Positions 2,766 through 54,490 of a stretch of 64,000 nucleotides of DNA are shown here, in pieces. Within the stretch, counting starts at the first letter, position 1, and each line of letters begins with the position of its first letter. Below the pieces are notes generated by a model. The model had not been told where the DNA came from and did no database searches. It saw only the letters and a program-made list of their open reading frames with translations. The position numbers and the translations under genes were made by a program. The DNA comes from an uncultured Collinsella sp. (GTDB taxonomy: Bacteria > Actinomycetota > Coriobacteriia > Coriobacteriales > Coriobacteriaceae): NCBI GenBank assembly GCA_900541785.1, contig UQKY01000003.1, positions 7,462 to 71,461 of the forward strand. Direction: 5' to 3'.

Positions 2766-5789
<3,024 letters not shown>

Positions 5790-7167: not shown

Positions 7168-7169
7168 GA

Positions 7170-7400
7170 AACTGGGGCAGGCTTTCTGCCAGACAGTTGT
7201 TGCGGAAAGCCTGCCCCGTTTTGAGCGCTCATTCTGGGGCACAGTTTCCGTTAGACAGCTCAACCGGAAACTGTGCCCCATTATTTTGCCGAATTCTTGG
7301 TCGCACTTTCCCAGAGGACCCCCCTTGGGAAAGCGCGACCCGTTCTGGACGCAAATTCCGGGTCGTAGTTTCCGCGACGCCCAGTCAACCTATACCCTCG
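7170..7400. repeat. Cluster of three intergenic stem-loops of the GTTTCCG/CGGAAAC family
   Basis: Three stem-loops: ggggcaggctttc...gaaagcctgcccc; ggggcacagtttccg...cggaaactgtgcccc (15-bp stem); cgcactttccca...tgggaaagcgcg. They sit between the convergent lacI and aspS genes. Confidence 0.6.
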
Positions 7401-7472: not shown

Positions 7473-9260
7473 CTACATCAGGCGCAGGCTGACGTCCTTG
7501 AGCTGGGCGCCGCTAACGGCACTCGGGGCGCCCGACATAAGGTCGGAGCCGCTGGCCGTCTTGGGAAACGCCATGACGTCGCGGATGGAGTCGGAGCCGG
7601 TGAGCAGCATGCACACGCGGTCCAGGCCCAGAGCAAAACCGCCCATCGGGGGCGCACCAAACTTGAGCGCCTCCATGAGGAAGCCGAACTGAGACTCGGC
7701 GCGCTCCTCGGTAAAGCCCAGGAGCTTGAGCATGGACATCTGCATCTCGGCGTTGTGGATACGCATGCCGCCGCCGCCGGCCTCAAAGCCGTCCATGACA
7801 AAGTCGTAGGTGCACGAACCGGCTGCCAACGGGTCGGCCTCGATCTTGGCGATGTCGGTCTCGGTCGGCAGAGTGAACGGCTGGTGCTCGGCAGCGTAAG
7901 CCTTGCGGTCCTCATCCCAGTGGAACAGCGGGAAGTTGACGACCCACAGGAAGTCGTGGCCCTCGCGCTTGATCTCGAGCGCATTGGCCATGTGAGAACG
8001 CATGCCGCCCAGAATCTCGTCGGAGAGCAGGCGCGGGCCGGCGGCGAACATCACAAGGTCGCCGGGCTCGACGTCCATGCGCTCGCGCAGAGCCGCCATC
8101 TCCTCGTCCGAGAAGAACTTGACGATGGGGCTGTTGATGGAGCCGTCCTCGCGGAAGGCGATCCATGCCAGGCCCTTGGCGCCAAACGTGGAGGCCACGC
8201 CGGCGAGCTTATCGATCTTGGCACGTGCCCAGGCACCGGCGCCCTTGGCGTTGATGGCCTTGACGACGGAGCCCTCCTCGTTTGCGGCAGTCGCAAAGAC
8301 CTTGAACTTGGAGTTGGCAAAGATGTCGGTCAGGTCGACCAGGTGCATGCCATAGCGGGTATCGGGCTTGTCGGAGCCATAGGTGTCCATGGCATCCCAG
8401 TAGTTCATGCGACGCAGCGGCGTGGGCATCTCGACACCCATGCGACCGAAGGCATCGGCAAGAACCTCTTCGAGCGCGCTCATGACATCGTTCTGGTCCA
8501 CGAAGGACATCTCGATATCGACCTGGGTGAACTCGGGCTGACGGTCGGCACGCAGGTCCTCGTCGCGGAAGCACTTGGCAACCTGGTAGTAGCGCTCGAC
8601 GCCACCGACCATGAGCAGCTGCTTCAGAAGCTGCGGGGACTGCGGCAGGGCGTAGAAGTTGCCCGGCTGGATGCGGCTGGGGACGATGAAGTCGCGGGCG
8701 CCCTCGGGCGTGGACTTGAACAGGGAGGGCGTCTCGACCTCCATGAACTCACGGTTGTGCAGCGCCTCGCGAATGGCAAAGGTAAAGTCGGAGCGCAGCT
8801 TGAGGTTGGCCATCATCTCGGGACGACGGAGGTCAAGATAGCGATAGCGTAGACGGGTGTCCTCGCTGGTCTCGATGCCGTCCTCGATCTGGAACGGCGG
8901 GGTGACGGACGTGTTGAGCACCTCGGCGTGGTCGGTCAGGACCTCGATCTCGCCGGTCGCGAGCTTGGTGTTGGTGGTCTCCTCGCCACGAGCGCGCACG
9001 ACGCCGTGAATCTTGATGGGCCACTCGGGACGCATGGTCTCGGCGATCTTAAAGGCATCGCCGTCGGAGTGCTCGGGGTCGAAGGTGAGCTGCGTGATGC
9101 CCTCGCGGTCGCGAAGGTCGCAGAAGATAAGGCCGCCGTGGTCGCGGCGACGGCTCACCCAACCGGTGAGGGTGACCTCTTCGCCCACGTTCTCGAAGCG
9201 AAGCTCGCCGCAGGTACGGGTGTGCATGGAATGCTCGTCAATGGGACGGGTCTGGCTCAT
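7473..9260 (-). CDS. aspS: Aspartyl-tRNA synthetase
   Basis: 595 aa with an N-terminal OB-fold anticodon-binding domain, class II motifs and the GAD insertion. Conserved FRDEDLRADRQPEFTQVD and GGGMRIHN motifs are present. Confidence 0.95.
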   Translation of the reverse strand: MSQTRPIDEHSMHTRTCGELRFENVGEEVTLTGWVSRRRDHGGLIFCDLRDREGITQLTFDPEHSDGDAFKIAETMRPEWPIKIHGVVRARGEETTNTKLATGEIEVLTDHAEVLNTSVTPPFQIEDGIETSEDTRLRYRYLDLRRPEMMANLKLRSDFTFAIREALHNREFMEVETPSLFKSTPEGARDFIVPSRIQPGNFYALPQSPQLLKQLLMVGGVERYYQVAKCFRDEDLRADRQPEFTQVDIEMSFVDQNDVMSALEEVLADAFGRMGVEMPTPLRRMNYWDAMDTYGSDKPDTRYGMHLVDLTDIFANSKFKVFATAANEEGSVVKAINAKGAGAWARAKIDKLAGVASTFGAKGLAWIAFREDGSINSPIVKFFSDEEMAALRERMDVEPGDLVMFAAGPRLLSDEILGGMRSHMANALEIKREGHDFLWVVNFPLFHWDEDRKAYAAEHQPFTLPTETDIAKIEADPLAAGSCTYDFVMDGFEAGGGGMRIHNAEMQMSMLKLLGFTEERAESQFGFLMEALKFGAPPMGGFALGLDRVCMLLTGSDSIRDVMAFPKTASGSDLMSGAPSAVSGAQLKDVSLRLM

Positions 9261-9516
9261 ACCAGTGATCCTCCTTTATGGATCTGTGCCGCCCCGTGTC
9301 GTTCCGGGCGGCGTCGTACAGATTTGCCCAGCCTGCGTAAACCGCGCAGCCGGACATGGCGTTCTATCTTATCGCACCCGCGTCGATGTGCCGCGAAAAA
9401 GTAGCTCTTGCCCAAAGACTTGACGGAGACGCAACAATTGACGCACCGTGGCCGTCGCCCAGGCTTGCGACGTGCGACAATGTGCCCCAATACAACTGCA
9501 CTCGGAAAGGCCCGCC

Positions 9517-10152
9517 ATGACTGCACGCCTCATCGTTATGGATATCGACTCCACGCTCATCAACCAGGAAGTTATCGACCTGTTGGGCGAGGAGGCCGGC
9601 GTAGGCGAGCAAGTGGCGCAGATCACTGAGCGCGCCATGCGCGGCGAGCTCGACTTTAAGCAGGCGCTCGAGGAGCGCGTGGGGCTGCTTGCCGGCTTGG
9701 ACGAGAGTGTGTTCGAGCGCACCTTTGAGCGCGTGACGTTTACCCCCGGCGCGCTGGAGCTTGTGCGCTCGGCGCACAGCAAAGGCTGGAAGGTCGGCGT
9801 GGTAAGCGGTGGCTTCCACGAGGTCGCCGACAAGATCGTGGCTGCCGCGGGCATCGACTTTTGCCTGGCCAATCGTCTGGAGGTCGTGGACGACAAGCTC
9901 ACCGGTAAGCTGGCGGCAGACATTGTGACCAAGGAGTCCAAGCTCATCCAGCTGCTGGACTGGGCAGTTGAGTGCGGCGTCGACATGGCCCACACGGTCG
10001 CTATTGGCGACGGGGCAAACGACATCCCCATGATCCAGGCCGCGGGCACGGGCATCGCGTTTTGTGCCAAGCCCAAGACGCGTAAAGCCGCCCCGTTTAC
10101 CATCGACGAGCGCAACCTGATGCTCGCCATGGACATCATCCTGCGCGACTAG
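9517..10152 (+). CDS. serB: Phosphoserine phosphatase (HAD family)
   Basis: MTARLIVMDIDSTLI contains the DxDST motif, and ...ITERAMRGELDF... is present. The start is set at the internal ATG of ORF 9448..10152. Confidence 0.8.
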   Translation: MTARLIVMDIDSTLINQEVIDLLGEEAGVGEQVAQITERAMRGELDFKQALEERVGLLAGLDESVFERTFERVTFTPGALELVRSAHSKGWKVGVVSGGFHEVADKIVAAAGIDFCLANRLEVVDDKLTGKLAADIVTKESKLIQLLDWAVECGVDMAHTVAIGDGANDIPMIQAAGTGIAFCAKPKTRKAAPFTIDERNLMLAMDIILRD

Positions 10153-10266
10153 CCGATCCGTCTAACAATTGAATCAGTCTGTCCTATAGTTTCCGAACAA
10201 TTTTGTCTTAGTGTTCTGAAACATACCCTTTGAGTGCTAGACTTTGCGCCGTCGAAGGGAACATAT

Positions 10267-11049
10267 ATGGATAAGCGAGATCTTGAGCAGCTGCTGAGCG
10301 ATGTTGCCGGCGGATCAGTCACCCCTGCCGACGCCCTCACGCGCATCCAGACGGCGCCAACCGCCGATCTGGGCTTTGCGCAGCTCGATCTTTCGCGCGG
10401 AGTGCGCCAGGGAGCCGGCGAGGTTGTCTACGGTGCCGGTAAAACCGCCGAGCAAATTGCCGCCATTATCAAAGCATTACTCGATGCAGACCAGGAGCGC
10501 ATCCTGGTCACACGCTTGGATGCCGAAAAAGCCGCGCGCACCGCTGAGCTTCTCGGCAACGACATTGACCTGGGATATGTCCCGGACGCCCAGCTCGCCC
10601 TCGTGGGTGGCAAGCCCTCCCCCACCGGCAACGGACGCATCGTCGTCGCCTGCGCCGGCACGAGCGACCTGCCCGTCGCCGAAGAGGCGGCACTGACGGC
10701 CGAGTTCTACGGCAACGAGGTCGATCGCCTCTACGACGTAGGTGTCGCCGGCCTGCACCGCCTGCTCGCTCATGCCGAGGAACTTGCCCAGGCGCAGGTG
10801 ATCATTGCCGTCGCCGGCATGGAGGGCGCGTTGGCGAGCGTTATCGGCGGCCTGGTGAGCTGTCCGGTCATCGCCGTCCCCACCAGCGTGGGCTATGGCG
10901 CAAGCTTTGGCGGCGTAGCCGCGCTGCTCGCCATGCTCAACTCCTGCGCCAGCGGCGTTTCGGTTGTCAACATCGACAACGGCTTTGGTGCCGCCTACCA
11001 GGCAAGTCTTATCAATCATCTGAGCGCTGGCACGCCCTGCGCCCGTTAA
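10267..11049 (+). CDS. larB: LarB, pyridinium-3,5-biscarboxylic acid mononucleotide synthase (PurE-like)
   Basis: N-terminal LarB-specific region plus a PurE-like fold: VVACAGTSDLPVAEEA...IIAVAGMEGALASVIGGLVSCPVIAVPTSVGYG. Shine-Dalgarno GAAGGGA lies upstream of the ATG at 10267. Confidence 0.8.
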   Translation: MDKRDLEQLLSDVAGGSVTPADALTRIQTAPTADLGFAQLDLSRGVRQGAGEVVYGAGKTAEQIAAIIKALLDADQERILVTRLDAEKAARTAELLGNDIDLGYVPDAQLALVGGKPSPTGNGRIVVACAGTSDLPVAEEAALTAEFYGNEVDRLYDVGVAGLHRLLAHAEELAQAQVIIAVAGMEGALASVIGGLVSCPVIAVPTSVGYGASFGGVAALLAMLNSCASGVSVVNIDNGFGAAYQASLINHLSAGTPCAR

Positions 11050-11059
11050 GGAGCATTCC

Positions 11060-11977
11060 ATGTCCAACCATCAGCACACGCTTATCATCGACGGCACCTC
11101 GGGCATCAGCGGCGACATGACCGTCGCGGCCCTGCTCGACCTGGGCGCCAGCAAGGAGCACCTGCGCGAACAGCTCGCCACGCTGCCGATCGACGGCTTT
11201 GAGATTGCCGTTACACGCGTAAACAAGCATGGCATCGACGCCTGCGACTTTGACGTTCAGCTGGCAGAGGAGCTCGAGAACCATGATCACGACATGGCCT
11301 GGCTCTACGGCAACGAAGCAGCTGGCGAGCACACGCACGAGCATGAGCATCACCATCATGATCATGGCGGACACGAACACGAGCACTGCCACGAGCATGA
11401 CCATGAGGGCCACGGTCATGGCCACGAGGACCATCACCACACCCACCACCATCATCACCGCTCGCTAGCCGACGTCACGGAAATTATCGAGAATTCGCAG
11501 CTAAGCGATGGCGCCAAGCGACGCGCGCTCGCCATCTTTACCGCGCTCGCCGCCGCCGAGGCCAAGGCTCACGGCAAAACGCCCGAGACCGTCATGTTCC
11601 ACGAGGTAGGCGCCATCGATTCCATCGTTGACATCTGTTCAGTCGCCATCTGCCTCGATGACCTGGGTATCGAGGACATCGTGGTCGAGTCGCTCTCCGA
11701 GGGTCACGGCACCATCAACTGTGCCCACGGCCTTATGCCCATCCCGGTGCCCGCCGTCGTCAACCTATGCCAAGCAGGCAATATCGCCCTCACGCCTGCA
11801 CCGGTCGCCGGCGAGCTCGTGACGCCCACGGGCGCCGCCATCGTCACCGCGCTGCGCACGTCCGAGCATCTGCCGGCCTGCTACCGCATCGAGGCCGTCG
11901 GCTACGGCGCCGGTAAGCGCCCCTACGAGGGCTGCTCCGGCACGCTCCGTTGCCTGCTTGTTCACGTGGATGCATAG
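11060..11977 (+). CDS. larC: LarC N-terminal (LarC1-like) nickel-insertion protein with a His-rich segment; C-terminal CTP-binding domain absent
   Basis: DUF111 start MSNHQHTLIIDGTSGISGDMTVAALLDLG, followed by a roughly 45-aa His/Glu-rich metal-binding tract (HTHEHEHHHHDHGGHEHEHCHEHDHEGHGHGHEDHHHTHHHHH). It stops at 305 aa, directly overlapping the TetR gene. Confidence 0.75.
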   Translation: MSNHQHTLIIDGTSGISGDMTVAALLDLGASKEHLREQLATLPIDGFEIAVTRVNKHGIDACDFDVQLAEELENHDHDMAWLYGNEAAGEHTHEHEHHHHDHGGHEHEHCHEHDHEGHGHGHEDHHHTHHHHHRSLADVTEIIENSQLSDGAKRRALAIFTALAAAEAKAHGKTPETVMFHEVGAIDSIVDICSVAICLDDLGIEDIVVESLSEGHGTINCAHGLMPIPVPAVVNLCQAGNIALTPAPVAGELVTPTGAAIVTALRTSEHLPACYRIEAVGYGAGKRPYEGCSGTLRCLLVHVDA

Positions 11978-11979
11978 CC

Positions 11980-12519
11980 ATGGATGCCCGCAAAATCAAA
12001 AGCCGCGCCGCTATTGTCACGGCGTTTTCCGAGCTCCTTCGCGAGGAGGACTACGGCAAGATCACCGTCGGCGACATCATCGCGCGCGCTCACGTAGGCC
12101 GCGCGACATTCTACGGCCTCTTTAAGAGCAAAGACGACCTACTATCCGAGCTCGTGAGCGACATCTGCGCCCACGCCCTCGACGACGATGGCACACCACT
12201 CGACGACCCACTCGTGCAGGTCGAGCATATCCTCAACAATCTCTGGGAGTGTCGCCAGGGCGTTCGAGCGCTGGTAGCCGGCGCCGGCTCACGCGTCTTC
12301 GCCGACTGCCTACGCAAGACCATCATGTCGCGCGCAGCCGAAACCGTCCCTACCGACCCAAACGGCCCCGCCGCCACCATGAATCGCAGCTTCCTACTAC
12401 ACCACATAGCCTCGAGCTTCGTAGGAATGGTCCAATGGTGGGCCTGGCACAACTTCGAAGCCCCAAAAGAGGACGTAGCCAAAGACTACCTATCAGCCAT
12501 AAAACCCCTCTTCACCTAA
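11980..12519 (+). CDS. TetR/AcrR-family transcriptional regulator
   Basis: HTH ITVGDIIARAHVGRATFYGLFKSKDDLL. About 180 aa, mostly helical. Confidence 0.8.
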   Translation: MDARKIKSRAAIVTAFSELLREEDYGKITVGDIIARAHVGRATFYGLFKSKDDLLSELVSDICAHALDDDGTPLDDPLVQVEHILNNLWECRQGVRALVAGAGSRVFADCLRKTIMSRAAETVPTDPNGPAATMNRSFLLHHIASSFVGMVQWWAWHNFEAPKEDVAKDYLSAIKPLFT

Positions 12520-12688
12520 ATAAGTAGCTCATCCCAAAGCATCGCCCCAACCCAGGCCGCCACGCATCCCAAAGTGCCGCTCGCGTTTCAACGCCCCCAA
12601 CAGCAACAAGCCCCTCCCATCCAAATCCAAATTCAGATTTATATGTTGGGTTGCTTGCTCGAGCGCAGCAAAGACCCCGCAGCTGGCC

Positions 12689-12799
12689 GCATGGGGTAAC
12701 TTCCCAGCGCATTCCGCAGGACGCAAAAAGGCTCGCCGCACGAAGTGCGCAGCGAGCCTTTTTGCATGTCCGAGGACGCGCTGGGAAGTTACCCCATGC
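12689..12799. repeat. About 110-bp palindromic repeat element, solo copy
   Basis: Outer 22-bp perfect inverted repeat gcatggggtaacttcccagcgc / gcgctgggaagttaccccatgc encloses a conserved core attccgcaggacgcaaaaaggctcgccgcacgaagtgcgcagcgagcctttttgcatgtccgaggac. The same core occurs at 15734-15852. Confidence 0.7.
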
Positions 12800-12827
12800 G
12801 GCCAGCGGACAACTATGTAGCCTTGGA

Positions 12828-13559
12828 CTAGAACATGCCCAAGAAACCGTGCACAAACAGCGCGGCCAGAGCGGCGCCGACAAACGGCGCGATGCCAGGA
12901 ACAAGCAGGCCATACTTCCAGTTGTTGTCAGCCTTGTTCTTGATCGGCAGCACCTGATAGGCCATGCGAGGACCAAGGTCACGAGCCTGGTTCATGGCGA
13001 AGCCGGTGATGCCGCCCATGCCCATGCCAACGGCCCAAACGATCAGACCGACGCAGATAGCGAGCATCAGAACGTTCTCGCCAGCGCGGCTAGCGGCAGC
13101 AAGGATGGCGCTGATGAACACAAAGGTGCAGATAGCCTCGCAGAAGAAGTTGCGCGCATAGTTCGTGCCCTCGGTGGTGGGGTTGGTCGAGAAGATGTTG
13201 CGCTGGGCAACGGGGTCGATGACACCATCGGAAGCCTTGAACTCATCGGCATACATCAACCACGCGATTACGGCGCCCACAAAGCCGCCGAGCATATCGG
13301 CAACCATGAAGGGGATGCAGCTGCTCCACGGCACCAGGCCGACGATGCACTGGGCAAGCACCATGGCGGGGTTCATGCACACGGCGCCGCCAAAGATAAA
13401 CAGGGCGACCGAGATGCCGAAAGACCAAGTGGTGATGGCAAACATATGACCAGAGCCCTGATACTTGGTGCCCTTGAGCACGGTATCGCAGTGTACACCC
13501 ACGCCAAAGATGATCATGAGGGCCGTTGCGCCGAATTCGCAAAGGAGTTTGGTAAGCAT
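12828..13559 (-). CDS. MIP-family aquaglyceroporin (LarD-like lactic acid/glycerol channel)
   Basis: 243 aa with six TM helices. The first NPA motif (CMNPAMV) is present, and the second motif reads NQARDLGPR. It sits inside the lar cluster where LarD is found in Lactobacillus plantarum. Confidence 0.85.
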   Translation of the reverse strand: MLTKLLCEFGATALMIIFGVGVHCDTVLKGTKYQGSGHMFAITTWSFGISVALFIFGGAVCMNPAMVLAQCIVGLVPWSSCIPFMVADMLGGFVGAVIAWLMYADEFKASDGVIDPVAQRNIFSTNPTTEGTNYARNFFCEAICTFVFISAILAAASRAGENVLMLAICVGLIVWAVGMGMGGITGFAMNQARDLGPRMAYQVLPIKNKADNNWKYGLLVPGIAPFVGAALAALFVHGFLGMF

Positions 13560-13608
13560 AAAACCTTATCTTTCTTGTCGGTTATAAACGATTCGTTTAG
13601 GCCGCACG

Positions 13609-14886
13609 CTAGTGCTGCGCGACGACAACGCCCAGGCCATCGGGAATGACGGCCACCTTGGCGTCAGCACCCTTCATCTCAAAGGCGAGCTTGAGCGCCT
13701 CCTCGATAGTGTTGACCGGCGTCATGTGCATATCCTTGAGCATCTGGTGATCGCACAGGTCGGTGACCATAATCACGGGATGATGTGCCAGGATGCGAGC
13801 GAAAATCTGGCTCGTCCACTGGTCGGGCAGGGTCTCGTCCTTAGGACGATCGATGCAGGCGCGCTCAAACTCCGCCGGGTCGTTGTCGGCGATGTTGTGA
13901 TAGAAGCCCTCGCCGCCGTGACCGTCGGCACAACCGGCGACATCGATAATCACGCCGCCCTCGGGAAGTGTGGCCTCGGCAGCGCACATGCCCTTCACGG
14001 CCTGGTAGATGTTCTGATCGAGCGGGTAGCCGCCGTTGGTGGTGATGGCGATCTCGCACTCGACGGGCTCAACGCCGGCAAGGCTCTTCACGAACTCGCA
14101 GCCAGCCTCGTGTGCCTTGTGAATGTCGCCGGCAAAGGAGCCGATGACCTCGTGCTTGCCGTTGAGCACAACGTTAAGCACAAAGGCAAGGTGAGCCATC
14201 TCGGCAGCGGCAAACATGTCCTCGCTCACGTGGTTGTGGCACAGGTTGCCGGCACGCGAATGAGAATCGTTCACAAACTGACCGTTGTGGTTGTACATGA
14301 TGGTCTTGTAGCTGGCGATGCCAGGCAGGACGGACTTGCGGCTACCAGAGAAACCGGCAAAGAAGTGCGGCTCAATGAAGCCCTCGGCAAGCAGCAGATC
14401 GCAATCGACGGCAATCTTGTTGATGATGCACTCGCCACCAGAAGGCAGGGTGCCGATCTTTTTCATCATGCTGTCGTCAGTCGCGACGTGCATAACGATT
14501 TCCTCGTTGGCAACGATCTCCTCGCCGTACTTGTTGACGAGCTCCTCGTGCGTCGACGGACGATGCATACCCGTAGCAACCAGAATGCGAACGCGCGCTT
14601 CAGGCGCAGCAGAGTGGATGTGATGCAGCAGAATAGGCATCGTCACACGCGAGGGAACGGGACGCGTATGGTCGGAGCTAATGATGACGATATCCTTCTT
14701 GCCAGCACAGAGCTCCTCGAGCGAAGGCGAGCCGTAAGGGTTGGCAAGTGACTCCTCCACCAGCTCTTCCTGCGATTTCGTGGTCTTAAACTCGTTTTGA
14801 TGACCTTCCATCACACCTGCAAAGTTCTTATCCTCGAGCTCCAGATGCAACGTCTTGTGGTCAAACGGCAGTTCACATTCAAACAA
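13609..14886 (-). CDS. larA: LarA, nickel-pincer-dependent lactate racemase (DUF2088 family)
   Basis: Conserved LVATGMHRPSTHEE and ITTNGGYPLDQNIYQAVKGM segments match LarA. The ORF extends to 15123, but the likely start is a TTG at about 14886 with Shine-Dalgarno GGAAGAGGG (start uncertain). Confidence 0.75.
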   Translation of the reverse strand: MFECELPFDHKTLHLELEDKNFAGVMEGHQNEFKTTKSQEELVEESLANPYGSPSLEELCAGKKDIVIISSDHTRPVPSRVTMPILLHHIHSAAPEARVRILVATGMHRPSTHEELVNKYGEEIVANEEIVMHVATDDSMMKKIGTLPSGGECIINKIAVDCDLLLAEGFIEPHFFAGFSGSRKSVLPGIASYKTIMYNHNGQFVNDSHSRAGNLCHNHVSEDMFAAAEMAHLAFVLNVVLNGKHEVIGSFAGDIHKAHEAGCEFVKSLAGVEPVECEIAITTNGGYPLDQNIYQAVKGMCAAEATLPEGGVIIDVAGCADGHGGEGFYHNIADNDPAEFERACIDRPKDETLPDQWTSQIFARILAHHPVIMVTDLCDHQMLKDMHMTPVNTIEEALKLAFEMKGADAKVAVIPDGLGVVVAQH

Positions 14887-15475
14887 TGACGAGCGCCCTC
14901 TTCCTTTCAACTGACACACTAGATAAACCGTTGGAAGGATACGCCGCTCACCGAAAAACACCACCGTCCACCGAGTCATTAACACAACGTTCATATTTGA
15001 CCCACAACAAAACGGCCGCGATCCCAAACGGGACCGCAGCCGCCTGTAAAAGACACAATAGACAGGATGACTTACGCAGCCTCGAGGCAAACATCTACCC
15101 CGAGATGTACGCATGTAAGCCATTTTGCATAAATGCGTTAATATATTGCATAAAATGGTGCATGGATTTCAAACCGTAACAGGGTAGTACCCTCCGGAGC
15201 GTGCATTTTTGCGAGTATTCAGCATCGCGGGATAAGATTTTGGTGTCAAAAGTCTTTCAAAAGGTAGATAGTCCTCATGACTCGTCCCATCTGGATAGCA
15301 TACGGCGAGAAACCAGCCGTATACGGGCATCGCCAAGGCCCAATTGTCGTGCAAAAGCATCAACAAAGGCAGCGAAAGCCGGCTATGGCCTTATGCATCA
15401 ATCTTTGGCTGCTGAAAACTCCGTTTTTTGCACGTCGCCCCAAGCACCACCCTCACCCAGCGGCTGATCCGCCAA

Positions 15476-15870
15476 AGGTCGGACATCGCAGGGCCCGCCA
15501 TTAGTTTACTTTTAGGCACACTCCATAGGACGCAAGAAGCCCTCTCCGCACTCCACATTAGGCGCGAAGCGCACTTTATTTTCATCAGCTTTAATCCCCG
15601 AAGACCGAGGACGAAGGGACCCGATGGGTTTCCCTCTGAATGCATTCCGCAGCACGAAGCCCTTTCCAAGCGCGCGAAGCGCGCCATTATTTCCCCAGCA
15701 AGTAATCCACCGAAGACCGGACATCGTAGGGGCGGCCGTATGTTTTCTTTCCGGCGCATTCCGCAGGACGCAAGAAGCCCTCGCCGCACGAAGTGCGCAG
15801 CGAGGGCTTCTTGCATGTCCGAGGACGCGCCGGAAAGAAAACATACGGCGGCCCCGGACAACGACTACAG
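15476..15870. repeat. Tandem array of three roughly 115-125-bp units of the same palindromic element
   Basis: Unit boundaries ...ccgaa|gaccg(g). Units A (15476-15602) and B (15603-15714) are degenerate; unit C (15715-15856) is an intact hairpin with a 23-bp outer stem ggccgtatgttttctttccggcgc / gcgccggaaagaaaacatacggc. A covarying inner stem gcaagaagccctcg...cgagggcttcttgc is present. Confidence 0.7.
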
Positions 15871-15879
15871 GGCTATCGA

Positions 15880-18705
15880 TTACCCCGTGTTCTGCAAACC
15901 CGCCGAGACGCCGGTCACAGTCGAAAGAATCAGGCTCATGTACTCGGCCTTCTTCTCCTCGGCCATCTCGTCCTGGTTCATACGCACCTCGCGAAGGGCG
16001 CGGACCTGTGCGATGGACAGGGCGTCGACGTAGGGGTTACGCACGCGAACGGCGCAGCCGAGCACGCGGCGGCGCTGCAGCGGCCACTCGTCACCGACGA
16101 TAGCAAGGACCCACTTACGCGTGAGCTGCATCTCGGTGAAGACCTTCTCGGACAGATCCTGCCGATCGCCCAGGTGCAGATACATCTTGGCGATGCGCTG
16201 ATCGGTCTTAGCGATCGACATCTCGATGTTGTCGATAAAGGTGCGGAAGAACGGCCACTCCTGGTAGGCAGCCTTAAGCTGGTCCAGATCGCCAAACTGC
16301 TCGCAGGCGGTACCCAGGCCGTACCAAGCGGCCAGATTGATGCGCGCCTGGCTCCAGCTGAAGATCCACGGAATGGTACGCAGGTCGTCGAGCGACTTGG
16401 CACCCAAGCCGCGCTTGGCGGGACGCGAGCCGATCGGCAGCAAGCCGACCTCGGTCAGCGGCGTCACGGTCGAGAACCACGGTGTAAAGTCCTCGGTGTT
16501 CAGCAGGTCCAGATAGCGCTCGTGGCTTGCGGCGTTGAGCTTCTCGGCCATATCCCAGAACTTCTGCGTGGTCTCGGTGTTGGTCTTCTCGACACTCGGG
16601 GCCGACTGCAAAAGCGTTGCGGCGGCAACGGACTCAACATGGCGCTGAGCCAGCGTGCGGTTGCCGTAACGGGCAAAGATGACCTCGCCCTGCTCGGTGA
16701 GCTTAAAGAAGCAGTTGACCGAACCCTTGGGCTGAGCCAGCACGGCCTTGTTGGCCGGGCCGCCGCCACGGCCCACGGCACCGCCGCGACCGTGCATGAG
16801 CACCAGGTCGATATCGTTCTTCTCTGCCCACTTGGCGATGCGCTCCTGCGCGGAGTGCAGCGCGAGCATGGCCGTGGTAGGACCGGCATCCTTGGAGGAG
16901 TCGGAGTAGCCCAGCATAACCTCCATGCGGCGGTTGGTCTGGGCAAGGCGCTTCTGCACCACGGGCAGCGTGAGCATCTGGTCGAGCACGTCGACGCAGC
17001 CCTCGAGGTCCTCGAGCTGCTCGAACAGCGGGATCACGTCGAGCTCGGGGACATCCTCCTCGTGTGCAAAGGACAGGTGGGCAAGCTCAAAGACGTCGGC
17101 CACATGCTGGGCGCTCTTGGTGAACGAGATGATATAGCGGTGCGCCATCTTCTTGCCGTAGCGCTTTTGGATGGAGCCGATGGCACGGAAGGTGTCGATG
17201 ACCTCGCGCGTCATGGGCTGCAGGTCGCCATGGATACCGTTCTCGTGGATATCCTTGAGGGCGCGGGCATGCACCACGGAGTGCTGACGGAACTCCATCT
17301 CGACCATGTGGAAGCCGAAGGACTCGACCTGCCAGATGATGGTCTGCACCGGACCGTAGGCGGCACGGACGGCACCGCAGGCAGCCAGCGAACGCTGGAC
17401 GACACGCAGGTCATCCAGGAACTCATCGGCGCTGTGATACATCGTGTCGGTGATACGACGCACGGTGGCGTTCAGACGGTCGGCCATGACGAGCATGACG
17501 GCGCGATGCGGCTCGTGCTCGGAGATCAGCTCGGCGCGGGCCGTGTACCGAGGGCTCATCTCGACCTGATGGTTCCACAGGTTAATGAGCTCGGCCGACG
17601 GCTTGCTGTAGGTGGCCTCGAGCGTGAGGTTGCGGCCGATGTGGCGGCACTTGTCCTCGAGCTTGAGCACCATGTGCGTAAAGTACTTGGCGGCGACCTC
17701 ACGGCTCACCTTGGCGGTGACGTTGGGGTTACCGTCGCGGTCGGAACCGATCCAGCTGCCGGGATGGAAGAACGCCGGGCACAGCGGCGGCACAGTACCG
17801 GCCTTGTCGCCCAGCACCCAATCGTCAAAACGACGATAGATAACGGGGATAACGTCGAACAGCGTGTTATCGAAGATGTCGATGATGGTATCGGCTTCCT
17901 CGACCGGCGTGGGCTTCTTGAGCGCGATGGGGCTCGTACGCACCAGGGCGTCGATCTCCTGCAGCATATGGCGCTCGTTCTCCACCAGGTCGGAGCCGCC
18001 CAGACGCGGACGCTCCTCCAGCAGGTTGGAGATACGGCGGATCTTGCCCTCGACGGCCTTACGACGGGCCTCGGTGGGATGTGCGGTAAAGACAGGGTGG
18101 AACTCGAGCTTGTCGAGCAGCTCGTTGGCACCCTCGACACCCAGCTCATTCACCAGCTGGTGATAGGCAACGGTAAGCTCGTTGGCGGGATCGACCTCGG
18201 TATCGGTCGACGCACCGGCCTCGCGCTCGCGCAGCTGCGCCACACGGTAGTTCTCCTCCGACAGGTTTGCCAGATGGAAAAAGCTCGTAAAGGCGCGGAC
18301 AATGACCTGCTGCTTATCGAGCGGCAGGCTGTCGATCAAATCGACGACCTCACGAAATGCCACGGCAGTGGGCTCGTCGGCGGTGGGCACGCCCTGCTCG
18401 TCGACGGCTTCGTCGGCAGCGCAGGTACCGGGGTTGCCGGCATTGACCACAATCTCGGCTGTCAAAATCTTGTCGAACAGGTCCGCGATCTCGGGATCAT
18501 ACTCGCTAAGCACACGGCGCTCCAGGCGCAAGAACAGCGCCAGATTGTCGCGCAGCTCCTCGGGGATCTCGATCTCGGCGAGACGCTCCCTGGACTCGGC
18601 ATTCGAGCCGATTCGGTTAACGAGGCGGTTGACCACGGCAGCGACGCGCGCCGCGGCTTCGGGTACAGACTGGTTGCTTAGGTTCTCAGCCACGTTTCCT
18701 CCCAT
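15880..18705 (-). CDS. ppc: Phosphoenolpyruvate carboxylase
   Basis: 941 aa. Signature motifs FHGRGGAVGRGGGPA and the C-terminal ...IAAWYGLG... region are present. Shine-Dalgarno AGGAGG precedes the ATG. Confidence 0.95.
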   Translation of the reverse strand: MGGNVAENLSNQSVPEAAARVAAVVNRLVNRIGSNAESRERLAEIEIPEELRDNLALFLRLERRVLSEYDPEIADLFDKILTAEIVVNAGNPGTCAADEAVDEQGVPTADEPTAVAFREVVDLIDSLPLDKQQVIVRAFTSFFHLANLSEENYRVAQLREREAGASTDTEVDPANELTVAYHQLVNELGVEGANELLDKLEFHPVFTAHPTEARRKAVEGKIRRISNLLEERPRLGGSDLVENERHMLQEIDALVRTSPIALKKPTPVEEADTIIDIFDNTLFDVIPVIYRRFDDWVLGDKAGTVPPLCPAFFHPGSWIGSDRDGNPNVTAKVSREVAAKYFTHMVLKLEDKCRHIGRNLTLEATYSKPSAELINLWNHQVEMSPRYTARAELISEHEPHRAVMLVMADRLNATVRRITDTMYHSADEFLDDLRVVQRSLAACGAVRAAYGPVQTIIWQVESFGFHMVEMEFRQHSVVHARALKDIHENGIHGDLQPMTREVIDTFRAIGSIQKRYGKKMAHRYIISFTKSAQHVADVFELAHLSFAHEEDVPELDVIPLFEQLEDLEGCVDVLDQMLTLPVVQKRLAQTNRRMEVMLGYSDSSKDAGPTTAMLALHSAQERIAKWAEKNDIDLVLMHGRGGAVGRGGGPANKAVLAQPKGSVNCFFKLTEQGEVIFARYGNRTLAQRHVESVAAATLLQSAPSVEKTNTETTQKFWDMAEKLNAASHERYLDLLNTEDFTPWFSTVTPLTEVGLLPIGSRPAKRGLGAKSLDDLRTIPWIFSWSQARINLAAWYGLGTACEQFGDLDQLKAAYQEWPFFRTFIDNIEMSIAKTDQRIAKMYLHLGDRQDLSEKVFTEMQLTRKWVLAIVGDEWPLQRRRVLGCAVRVRNPYVDALSIAQVRALREVRMNQDEMAEEKKAEYMSLILSTVTGVSAGLQNTG

Positions 18706-18950: not shown

Positions 18951-20270
18951 CTACAGGCGCTCGCGAACCGCCTCGACGACGTTGTCCAGATCGGCGAGCA
19001 CCTCGTCATGGCTCTGCATGTCGCGCACTTTGACCTTGCCGGCGGCAAGCTCGTCGCCACCCAGGACCAAGATGAGCTTGGCGCCTACCTTATCGGCTTG
19101 CTTAAACTGGGCCTTGAGCGAACGACCCTGATAGTCGGCCTCGGTCACGATACCTGCGGCGCGAAGCTCCTGCGTAATGGCAAAGACGTTCTGACGCAGC
19201 TCCTTGCCGGCGTTGGCGACATAGACGCACGGGGCCTCATCGGCACCCAAATCGCTGCCAAAGGCCTGCAGGGCCAGCAGGGCGCGCTCAAAACCGACAG
19301 CAAAGCCGACGCCCGCCGTGGGCTTGCCACCCTCGAGCTCGACCAGGCCATCGTAGCGGCCGCCGCCGCCGATGGAGCCGACGCCGGCGCCAGGGGCCTC
19401 GACCTCAAAGACAGTACGGGTGTAGTAGTCCAGGCCGCGCACCAAGGTGGGATCCTCGACATACTCGATACCGGCGGCATCCAGATAGCGCTTGACCTGC
19501 TCGTAGTGCTCGCAGCACTCATCGCACAGGTTGTCACCCATCAGCGGAGCCTCGGCCATGATCTCGCGGCAGTGGTCGTTCTTGCAGTCGAAGGCACGCA
19601 GCGGGTTGAGCTCGGCGCGCTCGCGGCACTCATCGCACATCTCGTCGGCGTGATCGAGGATGAACTGTTTAACCTGCTCGCGATAGGCCGGACGGCATTG
19701 GGCATCGCCCATCGAGTTAATGAGCAGACGGAGCTTGGAAAGATCGAAGCCCAGGCGCTTGTAGAACTCCATGAGCATGATGATGCACTCGGCGTCTGCC
19801 GCCGGATCGGGAGCGCCAAGCCACTCGATGCCCACCTGGTGAAACTGGCGCAGACGACCCTTCTGGGGACGCTCGCCACGGAACATGGCCTCGGCATAAT
19901 AGGCCTTAAACGGCGTGGAGCCCTGGGGCACCAGGTTGTTCTCCACGACGGCGCGCACCACGCCGGCCGTGCCCTCGGGACGAAGGGCCAGGCGCTGCTT
20001 GGGCTTAAGCTTGGTATCGGTGCCTTCGGTAAAGACGCGCTCCAGGTTGGCACCGCTAAACACGCGGAACATCTCCTTGCGAACGACGTCGGTCGACTGG
20101 CCGATACCGTGGACAAACACGTCCACCTGCTCGATCGCGGGCGTCTCGATGGGCTTAAAGCCAAACGGCTCGAACACGCCGGCCGCAATCTGCTGCATCT
20201 TTTGCCAGGCGCGCATCTCGGCGCCGATAAGGTCGCGGGTTCCCTCCGCCTTCTGTGCCTGCATGGGCAA
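18951..20270 (-). CDS. hisS: Histidyl-tRNA synthetase
   Basis: 439 aa. Class II motifs are present, including RLALRPEGTAGVVRA and the C-terminal anticodon-binding domain. Confidence 0.95.
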   Translation of the reverse strand: MPMQAQKAEGTRDLIGAEMRAWQKMQQIAAGVFEPFGFKPIETPAIEQVDVFVHGIGQSTDVVRKEMFRVFSGANLERVFTEGTDTKLKPKQRLALRPEGTAGVVRAVVENNLVPQGSTPFKAYYAEAMFRGERPQKGRLRQFHQVGIEWLGAPDPAADAECIIMLMEFYKRLGFDLSKLRLLINSMGDAQCRPAYREQVKQFILDHADEMCDECRERAELNPLRAFDCKNDHCREIMAEAPLMGDNLCDECCEHYEQVKRYLDAAGIEYVEDPTLVRGLDYYTRTVFEVEAPGAGVGSIGGGGRYDGLVELEGGKPTAGVGFAVGFERALLALQAFGSDLGADEAPCVYVANAGKELRQNVFAITQELRAAGIVTEADYQGRSLKAQFKQADKVGAKLILVLGGDELAAGKVKVRDMQSHDEVLADLDNVVEAVRERL

Positions 20271-20322: not shown

Positions 20323-20458
20323 CAGCAACGCGGCGGCGCGTCTGACCGAACGAGGGTATGGGGGCTCGTTCGGCCAGACGCGCCGCCGCTGTTTGTGATC
20401 CGTTTTCCTCCGTCCCCTTCGGATCACGTGATCTGTTGGGGACGGAGGAAAACGGATC
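20323..20458. repeat. Two long perfect palindromes in the hisS upstream region
   Basis: gcggcggcgcgtctgaccgaacgag / ctcgttcggccagacgcgccgccgc (about 25-bp stem), then gatccgttttcctccgtcccc / ggggacggaggaaaacggatc (21-bp stem) whose loop contains the palindrome ggatcacgtgatc. Confidence 0.7.
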
Positions 20459-20562
20459 ATTTCGTAGGCCCGCCTTGGAAACCGAATGATGGTACGAGCA
20501 TCCATTCGGCTTCCAGGGCAGCCACGGGCAGAACGGGGCGAACGGAAAAGAGCGACGGGCGT

Positions 20563-20787
20563 CTACTCCCCCGCCACGCTCGCGCGCAGCTTGGCGGCGA
20601 TGGGCTCGGATGCCAGCAGGAACACGAGCATGACCGCGGAGCACGCCAGGCACACAATCCAGGTGCTCGCAAAGGAGCCCGTGGCATCGAACAGCACGCC
20701 CGAGACGATGGCGCCGGTAGTGCCCAAGATTGCCTTGAAAGACAAGGGCATAGGCCTTATGGCCATGCCCGCAGGCTTGAAAGGCAA
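20563..20787 (-). pseudogene. Possible C-terminal remnant of an MFS transporter gene
   Basis: The 74-aa ORF ...GAIVSGVLFDATGSFASTWIVCLACSAVMLVFLLASEPIAAKL resembles the last TM helix and tail of MFS transporters (G-x-L-x-D-x-x-G-S motif). No upstream part of the gene exists, because the M20 peptidase gene ends at 20797. Confidence 0.3.
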
Positions 20788-20796
20788 GGTTGGGCA

Positions 20797-22146
20797 CTAC
20801 CGCTGGTCGGCGATATAGCCCAAAGCGACTGCCGCATAAGCCGCGGCGCCGAGCGGCAGCTCGGCATCGCTAAAGCGTGCCTTGGGATGGTGCTGAGCAA
20901 AATGCTCGTCCGTATCAGTCACGGCAGCGCCCACGGTAAAGTACGCACTCGGGATCTCGCTCGAGATCAACGCGAAGTCCTCGCTCGCCATGGCGTGGAA
21001 CAGTGGCAAGAAGGCGGACTTGGGCAGCACCGCGCCCACGTAGCCAAGCGACGCCTGCGTCATGTCGTCATCGAGTACGAGCGGGGGAACATCCGAGAGC
21101 GTCTCGATAGTCGCCGGCGTACGATAGGTCGTGGCCACGCCTTTGACGACCTCCGCGATGCGGGTCTTGAGGTGCTCCATGAGCTCGACGTCGAAGCCAC
21201 GCAGCGTTCCCTCGAGCACACAAGTGTCGGGGATGACATTTGCGGCCTGACCGCCGGCGAACTTGCCAACGGTCAGTGCGACCTCCTTGGCCGCCGGCAC
21301 TTCGCGAGCGATGAGCTCCTGAAGCGCCAGGTGCACATGGACGCCGGCCGTGATGGGGTCGATGCAGATCTCGGGGCTCGAGCCATGGCCGCCCTTGCCC
21401 TGCAGCGTGATGCGAAAACCGTACACGCCCGAGAGCGCCGGGCTGCCGTAGAGCACCAGGCCAAGCGGCGACTGGCTATTGACATGCATAGCAAAGGCGA
21501 CCTGAGGACGCGGGTTCTGCAGCAGACCGTCGGCGATGGCGGCGCGGGCACCCTCAAAGGTCTCCTCGCCCGGCTGGAACAGCAGTTTGACGGTTGCATT
21601 GGCGTCGATAAGCTCGGCCTCGCGGGCCTTGAGCAGGCGTGCCGCACCAAGCAGCGCCGTCGCGTGCATATCGTGACCGCAAGCATGCATGCAGCCGTTC
21701 GTAGAGGCGAAAGGCTCGCCGGATTCTTCGGCAACGGGCAAGGCATCCATGTCGCCACGCAGCATGATGACCGTACCGGCCTGTTCGTCCGTGCAGACGC
21801 CATTGCCCTGGGCCGCGGCGGCACCGACGCCGACAAGGCCCACAACACAGGAACCATCGACGAGCGTGGCAAATGGGATGTCCATCTCGGTCAGGCGCGC
21901 TTGAATATACGCAGAGGTCTGCGGGAGGCTATTACCCAGCTCGGGCATCTGGTGTAAATCGTGTCGCCACGCAGCGAGCTCGTCTGCAAAAGCCTGAGCT
22001 TCTGCAACAAGACCGTCACCGATAGCGGCCTGCGCCGCCGCGGTGGCCTTGGGCGCTGATTGCGGTTGAAGATCGGACAAAGCTGGTGCCATAGATGCCC
22101 TCCAGTATCGTTTTTGCAGCAAGCACTTTGATAGCATAAAGTGCAA
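20797..22146 (-). CDS. M20D-family amidohydrolase (N-acyl-L-amino acid amidohydrolase/hippurate hydrolase-like)
   Basis: Metal-binding motifs ...MHACGHDMHATALLGAA... and ...LLFQPGEE...; the size is typical for this family. Confidence 0.8.
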   Translation of the reverse strand: MHFMLSKCLLQKRYWRASMAPALSDLQPQSAPKATAAAQAAIGDGLVAEAQAFADELAAWRHDLHQMPELGNSLPQTSAYIQARLTEMDIPFATLVDGSCVVGLVGVGAAAAQGNGVCTDEQAGTVIMLRGDMDALPVAEESGEPFASTNGCMHACGHDMHATALLGAARLLKAREAELIDANATVKLLFQPGEETFEGARAAIADGLLQNPRPQVAFAMHVNSQSPLGLVLYGSPALSGVYGFRITLQGKGGHGSSPEICIDPITAGVHVHLALQELIAREVPAAKEVALTVGKFAGGQAANVIPDTCVLEGTLRGFDVELMEHLKTRIAEVVKGVATTYRTPATIETLSDVPPLVLDDDMTQASLGYVGAVLPKSAFLPLFHAMASEDFALISSEIPSAYFTVGAAVTDTDEHFAQHHPKARFSDAELPLGAAAYAAVALGYIADQR

Positions 22147-28363: not shown

Positions 28364-28677
28364 CCTGTCGTTGAATCAAATCGTACTATCGACAACCATT
28401 GTACGTAGGCGCTTTAGCGTCTCAGAGCACAATGGTATTGAGTTTTGCGGGTAGCAATATACTACGAAGACGAATTAACGTACAGTTGTACAGTATCTTT
28501 AATTTCAGCATGTCACAAAACCACAACCCGCACAAATTAGCAATTCAAATAGCATCGGGGACGTTCTTAAACGACTAGTCAAACAAAAACGCCCCCAATG
28601 ACTACTTAGGACCACGGCAACGTCGATGTTTTGGCAATGCCAGCGAGCGGGCGCCAGAGCGAACAAATTGGCATGAA

Positions 28678-28722
28678 AAGAGGACGGCATAGACCTTCTG
28701 GTCATGCCGTCCTCTTTGAATG
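28678..28722 (-). terminator. Rho-independent terminator of htpG
   Basis: On the minus strand, aagaggacggcat-gaccagaaggtct-atgccgtcctctt is followed by a T-run. It is nested inside a second 15-bp inverted repeat (cgggcgccagagcga / tcgctctggcgcccg). Confidence 0.65.
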
Positions 28723-28838
28723 ACAAGTTGTCGCTCTGGCGCCCGCGCAGCGTCGACTGGTCCGCCGTTCGTTAGAACGGCGGAACTGAGGGCAGCGTCG
28801 AGCCGTTACGCGGTTCGTAAAACCGCGTAACTACCTAA

Positions 28839-54128: not shown

Positions 54129-54490
54129 CACGGCCCCCTTCGAATCGCGCAGGTCGAACCTGCATCGCATTGCATAGGAAAAGTATCGTTTTGAGTATAC
54201 CCGCGCGTGCGGACAGGCGACCGAACGGTCTACAAAGTGGCGCAAAAGTGGGAGGAATGTCCGGGCAGACGAAACCCGAGATGCACACGCCAAGATGCAC
54301 ACGTGCGCCGGAAGTAGGCGGCCGAAAAGCGCGCCCCGTTTTTTCGCAAGAGACTGGGATGCGTTTTCCGCTGGCAGGCCCAACCGGAAAGCGCATCCCG
54401 CAATTCCGCGAAATTCCGGGATGCAGTTTCCGCAGGAGCTCTCGGTAAAAGAAAAAGGACCCCTTTGCAGAGGTCCTAGTCAATTCAAGG

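Follow-up and report, generated by a model that had tools for sequence, protein, structure and literature searches.

The window analyzed here is a 64,000-nt stretch of DNA from an uncultured Collinsella sp. (GCA_900541785.1, contig UQKY01000003.1, positions 7,462-71,461, forward strand). The part of interest comprises three minus-strand genes, i.e., ppc, larA and a larD-like gene, and two copies (A and B) of a long inverted repeat, one after larD and the other after ppc:

12675..12681, minus strand: conserved 3' flank of copy A, CUGCGGG in RNA sense, directly after the stem
12682..12806, minus strand: copy A, full hairpin of ~125 nt, an inverted repeat that begins 21 nt past the larD stop codon
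12709..12726, minus strand: 3' core half of copy A, RNA sense UUGCGUCCUGCGGAAUGC, exact match, invariant alignment columns
12762..12779, minus strand: 5' core half of copy A, RNA sense GCGUCCUCGGACAUGCAA, exact match
12807..12813, minus strand: 5' flank of copy A, GUUGUCC in RNA sense, directly before the stem, columns at least 90% conserved in alignment A1
12828..13559, minus strand: larD-like MIP-family channel gene (Pfam PF00230, E 1.8e-28), with copy A after its 3' end
13609..14886, minus strand: larA, lactate racemase (Pfam Lar_N and LarA_C), likely start the TTG at 14884-14886
15492..15606, minus strand: class B2 half unit, consisting of a linker (15575-15606), a mini hairpin (15562-15574) and a 3'-arm remnant (15492-15551)
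15616..15718, minus strand: class B3 half unit, consisting of a linker (15685-15718), the mini hairpin GCGCGC-UUCG-GCGCGC (15670-15684) and a 3'-arm remnant (15616-15667), with no 5' arm
15729..15855, minus strand: copy B, allelic class B1, full hairpin, an inverted repeat that begins 24 nt past the ppc stop codon
15756..15773, minus strand: 3' core half of copy B, exact match in RNA sense
15811..15828, minus strand: 5' core half of copy B, exact match in RNA sense
15880..18705, minus strand: ppc, PEP carboxylase (Pfam PF00311, E 1e-218), with copy B after its 3' end

The start codon of larA was placed from conserved sequence. Copy A lies between larD (-) and a convergent TetR gene (+), and the two copies are 3 kb apart in direct orientation, as the initial annotation had described. 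Open reading frames that overlap the element or the spacer (12512-12982, 15391-15861, 15201-15467 and 14886-15179) returned no Pfam match, and the spacer itself is indeed AT-rich, with a G+C content of 49% at 15000-15399 compared to ~61% nearby. The entire lar cluster (~9350-15878) is lineage-specific; one junction lies directly behind the ppc stop codon, 24 nt ahead of copy B.

Both hairpins were recovered at the two loci where a common core had been reported. The arms of copy A (12682-12739 and 12749-12806) measure 58 nt, are 83% complementary and are separated by 9 nt, while those of copy B (15729-15787 and 15797-15855) measure 59 nt, are 81% complementary and are likewise separated by 9 nt. 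Folding of either strand yields -108 to -116 kcal/mol (z = -14 to -15), a value equaled by none of 200 shuffles, with -115.7 kcal/mol (z -15.2) for the minus strand of copy A and -115.0 kcal/mol (z -14.0) for copy B. The core halves GCATTCCGCAGGACGCAA and TTGCATGTCCGAGGACGC have exact matches solely at copies A and B in the 64-kb window, where ~0.1 would be expected by chance. Within the core, an asymmetric internal loop places 5' CGUCCUCG opposite 3' CUGCGGA, accompanied by fixed bulges and G·U pairs; the apex is capped by UUCG, and each arm contains a short near-palindrome (GTCCTCGGAC and TCCGCAGGA). The heptamer GUUGUCC that precedes copy A is identical ahead of copy B.

The inner stems of copies A and B differ through compensatory changes, in line with the initial annotation. 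The outer stems were said to be different, perfectly palindromic sequences: they do differ between the copies, but they are only nearly perfect palindromes and are homologous, with 64-76% identity in register. The proposal that the core had inserted into pre-existing hairpins is rejected because the copies all have homologous outer stems; the other suggestion, i.e., that the outer stems co-evolve, is borne out by compensatory changes at orthologous sites.

The region next to copy B had been described as three tandem units of ~120 bp. Tandem duplication did take place, but the array consists of one full hairpin and only two 3'-half units (hairpin parts at 15616-15684 and 15492-15574), which both keep, in RNA sense, an apex-like mini hairpin and the 3' arm only. 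Tandem Repeats Finder reported no repeat at 15300-15950, and the tandem structure is deduced from pairwise repeats and from the alleles of other genomes. The class B3 arm remnant carries the core variant CUUCGUGCUGCGGAAUGC; in 24 other genomes the same arm belongs to a full hairpin behind ppc, and the class B2 arm, whose core is decayed in the half unit (CUAUGG replaces CUGCGG), is part of a full hairpin in 21 other genomes. The beginning of the B2 linker shares homology with the unique flank sequence at 15450-15480. The order seen here, B1F B3h B2h (F, full hairpin; h, half unit), was found in six loci, and at least 12 distinct arrangements of full and half units occur after ppc, this region being structurally unstable and variable by strain. 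The half units are by-products of tandem duplication of a segment bounded by the hairpin apex and a point ~40 nt beyond the hairpin, and the variable array may help to type Collinsella strains.

A search for exact matches to an 18-mer of the 3' core half returned 120 matches from ~115 Collinsella genomes. Many of these sequences derive from metagenome-assembled genomes, in which palindromes are prone to assembly errors; an inverted core in L055 may be such an artifact. The initial annotation had allowed that the core might be confined to the two loci and lack covariation support, whereas both further copies and covariation were found. All 120 matches fall at four fixed sites, namely after larD, after ppc, after a class-IV aminotransferase gene (L007) and after an Fe-alcohol dehydrogenase (Fe-ADH) gene (L064). 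Every copy begins 12-24 nt past a stop codon and has one orientation relative to that gene (4/4 sites), an agreement in orientation with a chance probability of ~1 in 8, and CUGCG or CUACG stands right behind the stem at 4/4 sites. The exact matches and a covariance-model scan agree on two copies in the window, and we infer three or four copies per genome. Of the loci that include the end of ppc, 56/56 have a full copy; the clade yielded no empty site, and viral contigs returned 0 matches. The family thus far appears restricted to the Collinsella aerofaciens group. Sequences downstream of the copies share weak similarity (z ~3-5).

Covariation across the family upholds the earlier suggestion of selection on the hairpin. 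Among 64 distinct copies, the stem comprises 55 pairs with 98.7% of cells paired, both sides having changed in 27/55 pairs, and none of the covariation measures for these copies was reached in 500 shuffles (0/500). Sliding the 3' partners by 1-3 columns causes paired cells to fall to 39-46%. Across 106 distinct copies, at least two Watson-Crick pair types occur at 34/51 pairs. Class B3 extends this pattern into the core, where GGAC/GUCC is replaced by GCAC/GUGC and GCAA/UUGC by GAAG/CUUC, and where the mismatch and bulges keep their positions, with one bulge base changed.

The two strands are not equivalent. Standard pairs account for 98.8% of cells on the minus strand versus 93.8% on the plus strand, the minus strand folds better by 6-7 kcal/mol, and the covariance model scores copy A at 185 bits on the minus strand versus 95 bits on the plus strand (copy B scores 149.5 bits). 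G·U cells number 303 versus 38 A·C cells, or 33 versus 18 when each pair type per position is counted once, and two G·U pairs are invariant in 64/64 copies, with a third in 63/64. The G·U pattern points to the minus, gene-sense strand as the RNA strand.

Outer stem and core evolve at very different rates, the p-distance being 0.117 for the outer stem, 0.119 for larD third-codon positions and 0.009 for the core. Such drift of a stem at the neutral rate is faster than usual for functional RNA helices. Because the 18-mer search pattern lies in the 3' core half, the collection inflates the apparent conservation of that half; the 5' core half, which lies outside the pattern, is identical in 80/87 copies at the larD site.

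In outgroups (ppc 78-87% identical, or aminotransferase 87%) no copy is present, and the covariance model detected no distant copy in four outgroup loci. These outgroups carry hairpins of ~10-20 bp at the same positions, which are ordinary terminators, two of them followed by a T-run; the Collinsella hairpins are equivalent in position to outgroup terminators. This, together with the post-stop placement and single orientation, supports the giant terminator or structured RNA that was among the possibilities initially listed. Stable G+C-rich hairpins do lie 21 and 24 nt past the larD and ppc stops, respectively, as in a canonical terminator. No U-run follows the hairpins at larD, ppc and the aminotransferase gene, the tails in the window reading CUGCGGGGUCUUUG and CUACGAUGUCCGG, and a U-rich tail is found only at the copy after the Fe-ADH gene. 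A consensus terminator scan called neither hairpin of the window. Canonical intrinsic termination is consequently unproven, given the three sites without a U-tract and the lack of a terminator-scan call.

We consider it probable that these hairpins form a lineage-specific family of giant terminators or 3'-end protective RNA elements, each an extended hairpin of ~125-140 nt. Each hairpin would be transcribed, from the window minus strand, as the 3' end of the mRNA of the upstream gene, and would take the place of the ordinary terminator hairpin that related lineages keep at that position. Its most likely role would be that of a terminator or 3'-end barrier for the ppc, larA-larD, class-IV aminotransferase and Fe-alcohol dehydrogenase transcripts. 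The transcription of the element, its activity in termination or stabilization, and any binding factor are what we infer from sequence. Long stems of this kind need only pair, and the outer stems accordingly drift at about the synonymous rate while remaining complementary. The internal loop and the UUCG apex are nearly constant, as might be expected of a site recognized by a protein or by an RNase specific for double strands, e.g., RNase III, and the core is probably such a site. It is conceivable, if rather doubtful, that the loop CGUCCUCG/CUGCGGA serves as a docking or cleavage site for an RNA-binding protein or RNase III, which would co-regulate ppc, larA-larD, the branched-chain aminotransferase and the Fe-alcohol dehydrogenase post-transcriptionally from their 3' ends. 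If true, these genes would constitute a small 3'-UTR regulon of fermentation and anaplerosis genes in an abundant gut actinobacterium.

The family is a tidy case of a known kind of element and involves no new mechanism; its payoff is modest, since it extends a known class and opens none. Collinsella is a common human gut genus whose RNA biology is almost without experimental work. If the terminator or 3'-end reading is right, the genus possesses a 3'-end RNA element not in Rfam that is sharply delimited and covaries strongly. Its frozen asymmetric loop amid drifting paired stems offers a tangible starting point in the search for the factor recognizing it, and the element could serve to test how transcripts are ended or protected in actinobacteria when no U-tract is present. 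Rfam 15 at gathering thresholds gave no match at the hairpins, and its E-value mode returned only sub-threshold generic long hairpins (e.g., MIR898, 43 bits versus a threshold of 75). A full-text literature search for the core, in both orientations and as DNA and RNA, retrieved no matching paper. In the 200 of 408 supplementary files of Fremin & Bhatt 2021 (PMC8040213) that were covered, together with part of the main table, the core sequence has no match, Collinsella is not listed beside larA or a glpF/MIP-type (larD-like) gene, and the term PEPcase does not occur.

Compared to canonical intrinsic terminators, the Collinsella hairpins share a G+C-rich stem a few nucleotides after the stop codon, but that stem has 55 pairs rather than ~5-15, three of the four sites are without a U-tract, and the core sequence is common to unlinked sites. 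A closer parallel is the Tuberculosis Rho-independent terminator motif (TRIT) of Mycobacterium (Gardner et al. 2011, PMC3152330), which is present in 147 copies per genome, was reported to be restricted to Mycobacterium and lies mostly across the coding-sequence end, around -8; its authors proposed a factor that binds the conserved double-stranded motif (PMC3152330). Both are actinobacterial palindromic hairpins that are conserved in sequence and structure, tied to gene termini and devoid of classical terminator architecture. The Collinsella family differs in its three or four inferred sites per genome versus 147, in beginning 12-24 nt past the stop rather than over the coding end, and in being far longer (55 pairs), with an invariant asymmetric internal loop. 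As compared by description, the resemblance appears to be functional and not one of membership, which is denied on the basis of a Collinsella host and four sites as opposed to 147 copies in Mycobacterium only.

ERIC/IRU, Correia (NEMIS) and REP/BIME elements are proteobacterial imperfect palindromes of ~35-150 bp that are co-transcribed with flanking genes, can act as 3'-end stabilizers, terminators or RNase III substrates, and are targets of insertion sequences. These families number tens to hundreds of copies and differ in presence between strains, and several are bounded by terminal repeats and target duplications or have their own transposase. Rfam scans indicate no sequence relationship to the Collinsella hairpins, in which neither high copy number, nor differences in presence between strains, nor target duplications are seen.

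It is unlikely that the family is a palindromic DNA repeat of the REP/MITE/ERIC/Correia type, mobile now or in the past, which spread to a few terminator-proximal sites, persists there as DNA and affects RNA only secondarily. Near-identical cores at four unlinked sites do imply past copying, short motifs (GUCC 5' and CUGCG 3') flank the stems, and the many full and half-unit arrangements after ppc attest to instability. Moreover, an IS3-like element, unrelated to the family, sits exactly within the apical loop of one copy (L099), and palindromic repeats are targeted by insertion sequences (Tobes & Pareja 2006, as cited in PMC8040213). Against this, the same four sites recur throughout the ~115 genomes, no empty site turned up in the clade and viral contigs returned no match. 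Furthermore, no flanking direct repeat is common to the sites, outgroups without the element being too diverged to define insertion boundaries, and a selfish palindrome would need neither the asymmetric core nor the orientation that are conserved. With an inferred three or four copies per genome, no variable site among the 120 matches and no target duplication, the family is not REP/MITE-like, contrary to another of the initial suggestions.

Still less probable is a DNA palindrome without RNA function, whose arms would be kept complementary by hairpin-templated repair and whose core, with its near-palindromes GTCCTCGGAC and TCCGCAGGA, would be a double-stranded DNA binding site. Outer stems that remain complementary at a neutral rate are compatible with this idea, as intrastrand template switching can in principle maintain complementarity without RNA selection, and the breakpoints of the half units fall at the apex, where replication impeded by a DNA hairpin would place them. 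Correction by template switching would, however, leave no bulges, no U·C mismatch and no G·U (A·C) positions, yet all of these are invariant across sites and genomes, and the idea conflicts with the strand bias in G·U over A·C cells and leaves the fixed post-stop position and orientation unexplained.

Finally, it is very improbable that the hairpins are recombination sites, akin to integron attC, that bracket larD-larA as a mobile cassette. The direct repeats do surround larA-larD, the lar cluster is lineage-specific with one junction at the ppc stop beside copy B, and in L048 the outer arms of one copy derive from two different alleles. In that hybrid, both alleles belong to one and the same site, and a MAG chimera may be the cause; two unrelated genes at other genomic locations are also followed by copies. 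The other junction of the island, near 9350, holds no copy according to the covariance-model scan of the window, and, at variance with attC sites, no cassette gain or loss occurs between the copies. Among loci reaching from the ppc stop far enough downstream, 54/54 retain larA-larD between both copies, none showing a deletion; the elements therefore do not mark a rearrangement of larD-larA, as had been supposed, and their bracketing of these genes is incidental. A DNA uptake sequence or parS-like site was dismissed, as copy number and sequence do not fit.

Another long hairpin follows a stop codon at 20703-20821, with a covariance-model score of 20.5 bits and unconvincing homology to the family. 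In favor of the terminator or 3'-end reading, long intergenic hairpins, with arms of 21-32 nt, are common elsewhere in the 64-kb window.

Two long inverted repeats lie among the lar genes and ppc, in the following setting (genes assigned by Pfam):

9448-10152, plus strand, HAD hydrolase
10234-11049, plus strand, larB-like
11060-11977, plus strand, larC-like
11950-12519, plus strand, TetR
12682-12739/12749-12806, hairpin arms of copy A, inverted repeat, 9 nt between arms
12828-13559, minus strand, larD-like MIP channel
13609-14886, minus strand, larA
15729-15787/15797-15855, hairpin arms of copy B, inverted repeat, 9 nt between arms
15880-18705, minus strand, ppc
18951-20270, minus strand, hisS

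Since larD and ppc are both encoded on the minus strand, these coordinates place the two hairpins just 3' of minus-strand genes. Both possess arms of 58-59 nt with ungapped complementarity of 81-83%, and as RNA either strand folds with an energy of -108 to -116 kcal/mol (z -14 to -15; equalled by none of 200 shuffles). Across the 64 kb window, exact matches to the two 18-nt core halves occur at these hairpins only, and the compensatory differences between the inner stems of the two copies, as described in the initial annotation, are borne out by the sequence. The proposal that the core had inserted into pre-existing hairpins is ruled out, because the two window copies have homologous outer stems (64-76% identity when compared in register) and those of orthologous copies at one site are quite different yet internally complementary. 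The hairpins match no Rfam family, and a full-text literature search with the core sequence returned no match. Other intergenic hairpins, with arms of 21-32 nt, are present at 20330-20389, 20396-20459, 20703-20821, 28663-28731, 54385-54432, 7169-7222 and 7235-7280, three of them grouped upstream of hisS; that at 20703-20821 begins directly after a stop codon and scores weakly (20.5 bits) against the covariance model. Long hairpins seem to be characteristic of this genome.

Copies in other genomes were collected by scanning a single genome of each species for exact matches to an 18-mer, which returned at least 120 stretches; the matches listed derive nearly all from Collinsella, mainly the aerofaciens group, with approximately six chance matches in other taxa. 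When sorted by their flanks, the listed matches occupy four genomic places:

Site A, after larD, 21 nt from stop codon to hairpin
Site B, after ppc, 24 nt from stop codon to hairpin
Site C, after a class-IV aminotransferase gene convergent with a LemA gene, 16 nt from the stop codon
Site D, after an Fe-alcohol dehydrogenase (Fe-ADH) gene, 12 nt from the stop codon (one instance, locus L064)

The orientation of the element relative to the upstream gene is identical at all four. Fuzzy searching yielded 159 full copies, and as core variants, i.e., most site-B copies and an independently fetched site-C copy (L125), escape the exact 18-mer, the family is estimated at ~3-4 copies per genome at fixed sites. 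Viral contigs contained no matches. ERIC, Correia and REP elements are co-transcribed palindromes, a manner of working that the Collinsella hairpins would share, whereas those elements are high-copy and mobile; with few copies at fixed sites, a formerly mobile palindromic repeat is an unlikely origin for the present family.

Individual loci show further peculiarities. In L099 (~6735 to the locus end) an IS3-like element sits exactly in the apical loop of the larD-site copy, with end TGAACTGCGCCCC and an ORF starting MAQRRKRYD, the contig ending within the IS. The post-aminotransferase copy of L048 (1165-1321) has non-pairing outer arms, each from a different allele, while a copy at a contig end (L055, 1-91) has its core inverted with respect to its flanks; both could be real recombinants or metagenome-assembly artefacts at the palindrome. 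A weakly shared motif, AAAGATGGTGCGC(GG), occurs 40-135 nt 3' of copies after ppc, the aminotransferase gene and the Fe-ADH gene (L125 ~2735-2760; L064 ~7600-7640, where it coincides with the likely start of the next gene; L027 ~40 nt past the post-ppc copy), with local alignment z ~4-5.

Alignment of 64 distinct copies in the RNA sense (window minus strand) defines a single hairpin of 55 pairs, with standard pairs in 98.7% of cells and changes on both sides in 27 pairs. None of 500 column shuffles matched the observed covariation values, and displacing the 3' partners by 1-3 columns reduced pairing to 39-46%. Covariation also held among 106 distinct copies including the divergent site-B classes, where 34 of 51 pairs exhibit at least two Watson-Crick pair types. 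Counted on the minus strand, 98.8% of cells hold standard pairs, against 93.8% for the plus strand. There are 303 G·U cells and 38 A·C cells (33 and 18 if a pair type is scored a single time per position). Of the G·U pairs, two are invariant and another occurs in 63 of the 64 copies, and the minus strand holds a folding advantage of 6-7 kcal/mol. This bias, together with the fixed orientation after stop codons, an argument based on four sites, points to an RNA in the sense of the upstream gene.

Where the outer stem meets the inner stem, the hairpin is interrupted by an asymmetric internal loop (5' GCGUCCUCGGACAUGCAA versus 3' UUGCGUCCUGCGGAAUGC). Its irregular positions, comprising single bulged A and U residues, an AU bulge and a U·C mismatch, together with a G·U pair, do not vary among the 64 aligned copies. 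For the 3' core half, which served as the search pattern, conservation is biased by the copy collection. The 5' half, outside that pattern, has one and the same sequence in 80 of the 87 copies at site A. In class B3, one of the site-B alleles, core pairs are altered in compensatory fashion (GGAC/GUCC to GCAC/GUGC; GCAA/UUGC to GAAG/CUUC), while CGUCCUCG and CUGCGGA are kept and the mismatch and bulges retain their positions, with one bulge base altered. Short conserved motifs also border the stem, GUCC 5' of it and CUGCG 3' of it.

On this comparative evidence, we consider it fairly probable that these elements constitute a small family of giant RNA hairpins, specific to the lineage and located at transcript 3' ends, which would serve as terminators and/or barriers to 3' exonucleases; no U-tract was found at three of the four sites. 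The stems would require pairing alone, and a protein or double-strand-specific RNase probably recognises the asymmetric core. Hairpin-templated repair at the DNA level might help to maintain arm complementarity, as would suit a palindrome or binding site acting purely in DNA, but under such repair the invariant mismatches and bulges would not be retained, and this alternative appears less likely still than a once-mobile repeat. The closest precedent for a 3'-end hairpin family, compared by description, is the likewise actinobacterial TRIT. This mycobacterial palindromic hairpin is found at gene ends, shows conservation of both sequence and structure, and was suspected by its authors to bind a factor (PMC3152330). 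The motif occurs in 147 copies, overlaps stop codons and, according to that paper, is restricted to Mycobacterium (PMC3152330), whereas the Collinsella hairpins lie 12-24 nt past the stop; the family would extend a known class of element.

Among the 87 site-A copies, the outer stem differs by 0.117, compared to 0.119 for larD third-codon positions, and the core by ~14 times less than the outer stem. Site A comprises at least four allelic classes, divergent from the stop codon onward, which do not track larD divergence: pairs at 0-0.5% third-position divergence may differ in class. The intergenic block is therefore exchanged among strains through recombination.

Three allelic classes (B1, B2 and B3) are distinguished at site B, which always carries one full hairpin 3' of ppc and, after it, none, one or two half units, each composed of a linker, a mini hairpin homologous to the apex (GCGC-UUCG-GCGC) and a 3' arm from another class. 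At least 12 arrangements exist among 56 loci, that of the window (B1 full, B3 half, B2 half) in six. The array of three tandem units initially annotated thus comprises one full hairpin and two half units; Tandem Repeats Finder did not detect it. No orphan 5' arms were observed among the copies examined, and the linker start is homologous to the unique flank after the last unit. The simplest origin would be tandem duplication of a segment from the hairpin apex to ~40 nt past the hairpin, followed by divergence and exchange among strains. Half units yield no fold comparable to the full hairpin, and some are decaying, the window B2 remnant reading CUAUGG instead of CUGCGG. They are restricted to the ppc site. 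Of note, L027, L010 and L012 carry, ~150-350 nt past the ppc stop, degenerate units with mini hairpins (GCGC-UUCG-GCGC) despite a single full copy, as well as a fragment, TTTGGATGGGGC, resembling the start of the class-B3 3' arm, which suggests repeated duplication and decay.

The element is absent from all outgroup ppc loci fetched with flanks (homologues of 78-87% identity). Homology to the window ends exactly at the ppc stop codon, restarting at aspS in two, and ordinary hairpins, one with a T-run, lie downstream. Similarly, an outgroup aminotransferase gene (87% identical) has a canonical terminator (GGUCCC...GGGACC + UUUUUG) at the position of the aerofaciens-group hairpin, so that the giant hairpins occupy positions of normal terminators in relatives. 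Another kind of repeat is found just past ppc in outgroup locus L122 (6827-6950), i.e., ~30-nt short tandem repeats (caggtgcgcgttg...) followed by a T-run terminator.

The hairpins had also been proposed to mark rearrangement of the lar region, which is not borne out: larA-larD between them is lost in none of 54 genomes, and they do not bound the lar cluster. A cassette recombination site is a very improbable reading of the elements. The whole cluster (~9350-15878, HAD hydrolase to larA) is specific to this lineage; related Collinsella have ppc adjoining aspS (L122) or separated from it by an IS110-family transposase gene (L124). The ppc-larA spacer differs in length among genomes: the distance from ppc stop to larD stop falls into a short (2406-2500) and a long (2912-3027) group, with intermediates in some genomes; the window has an extra ~400-500 nt of lower G+C content (~15000-15470, G+C 0.49), whose ORFs have no Pfam match and which are absent from short-spacer genomes. 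At the opposite edge of the cluster, the aspS leader contains an aspS RNA motif (Rfam RF02930, 77.6 bits; 9272-9355, minus strand).
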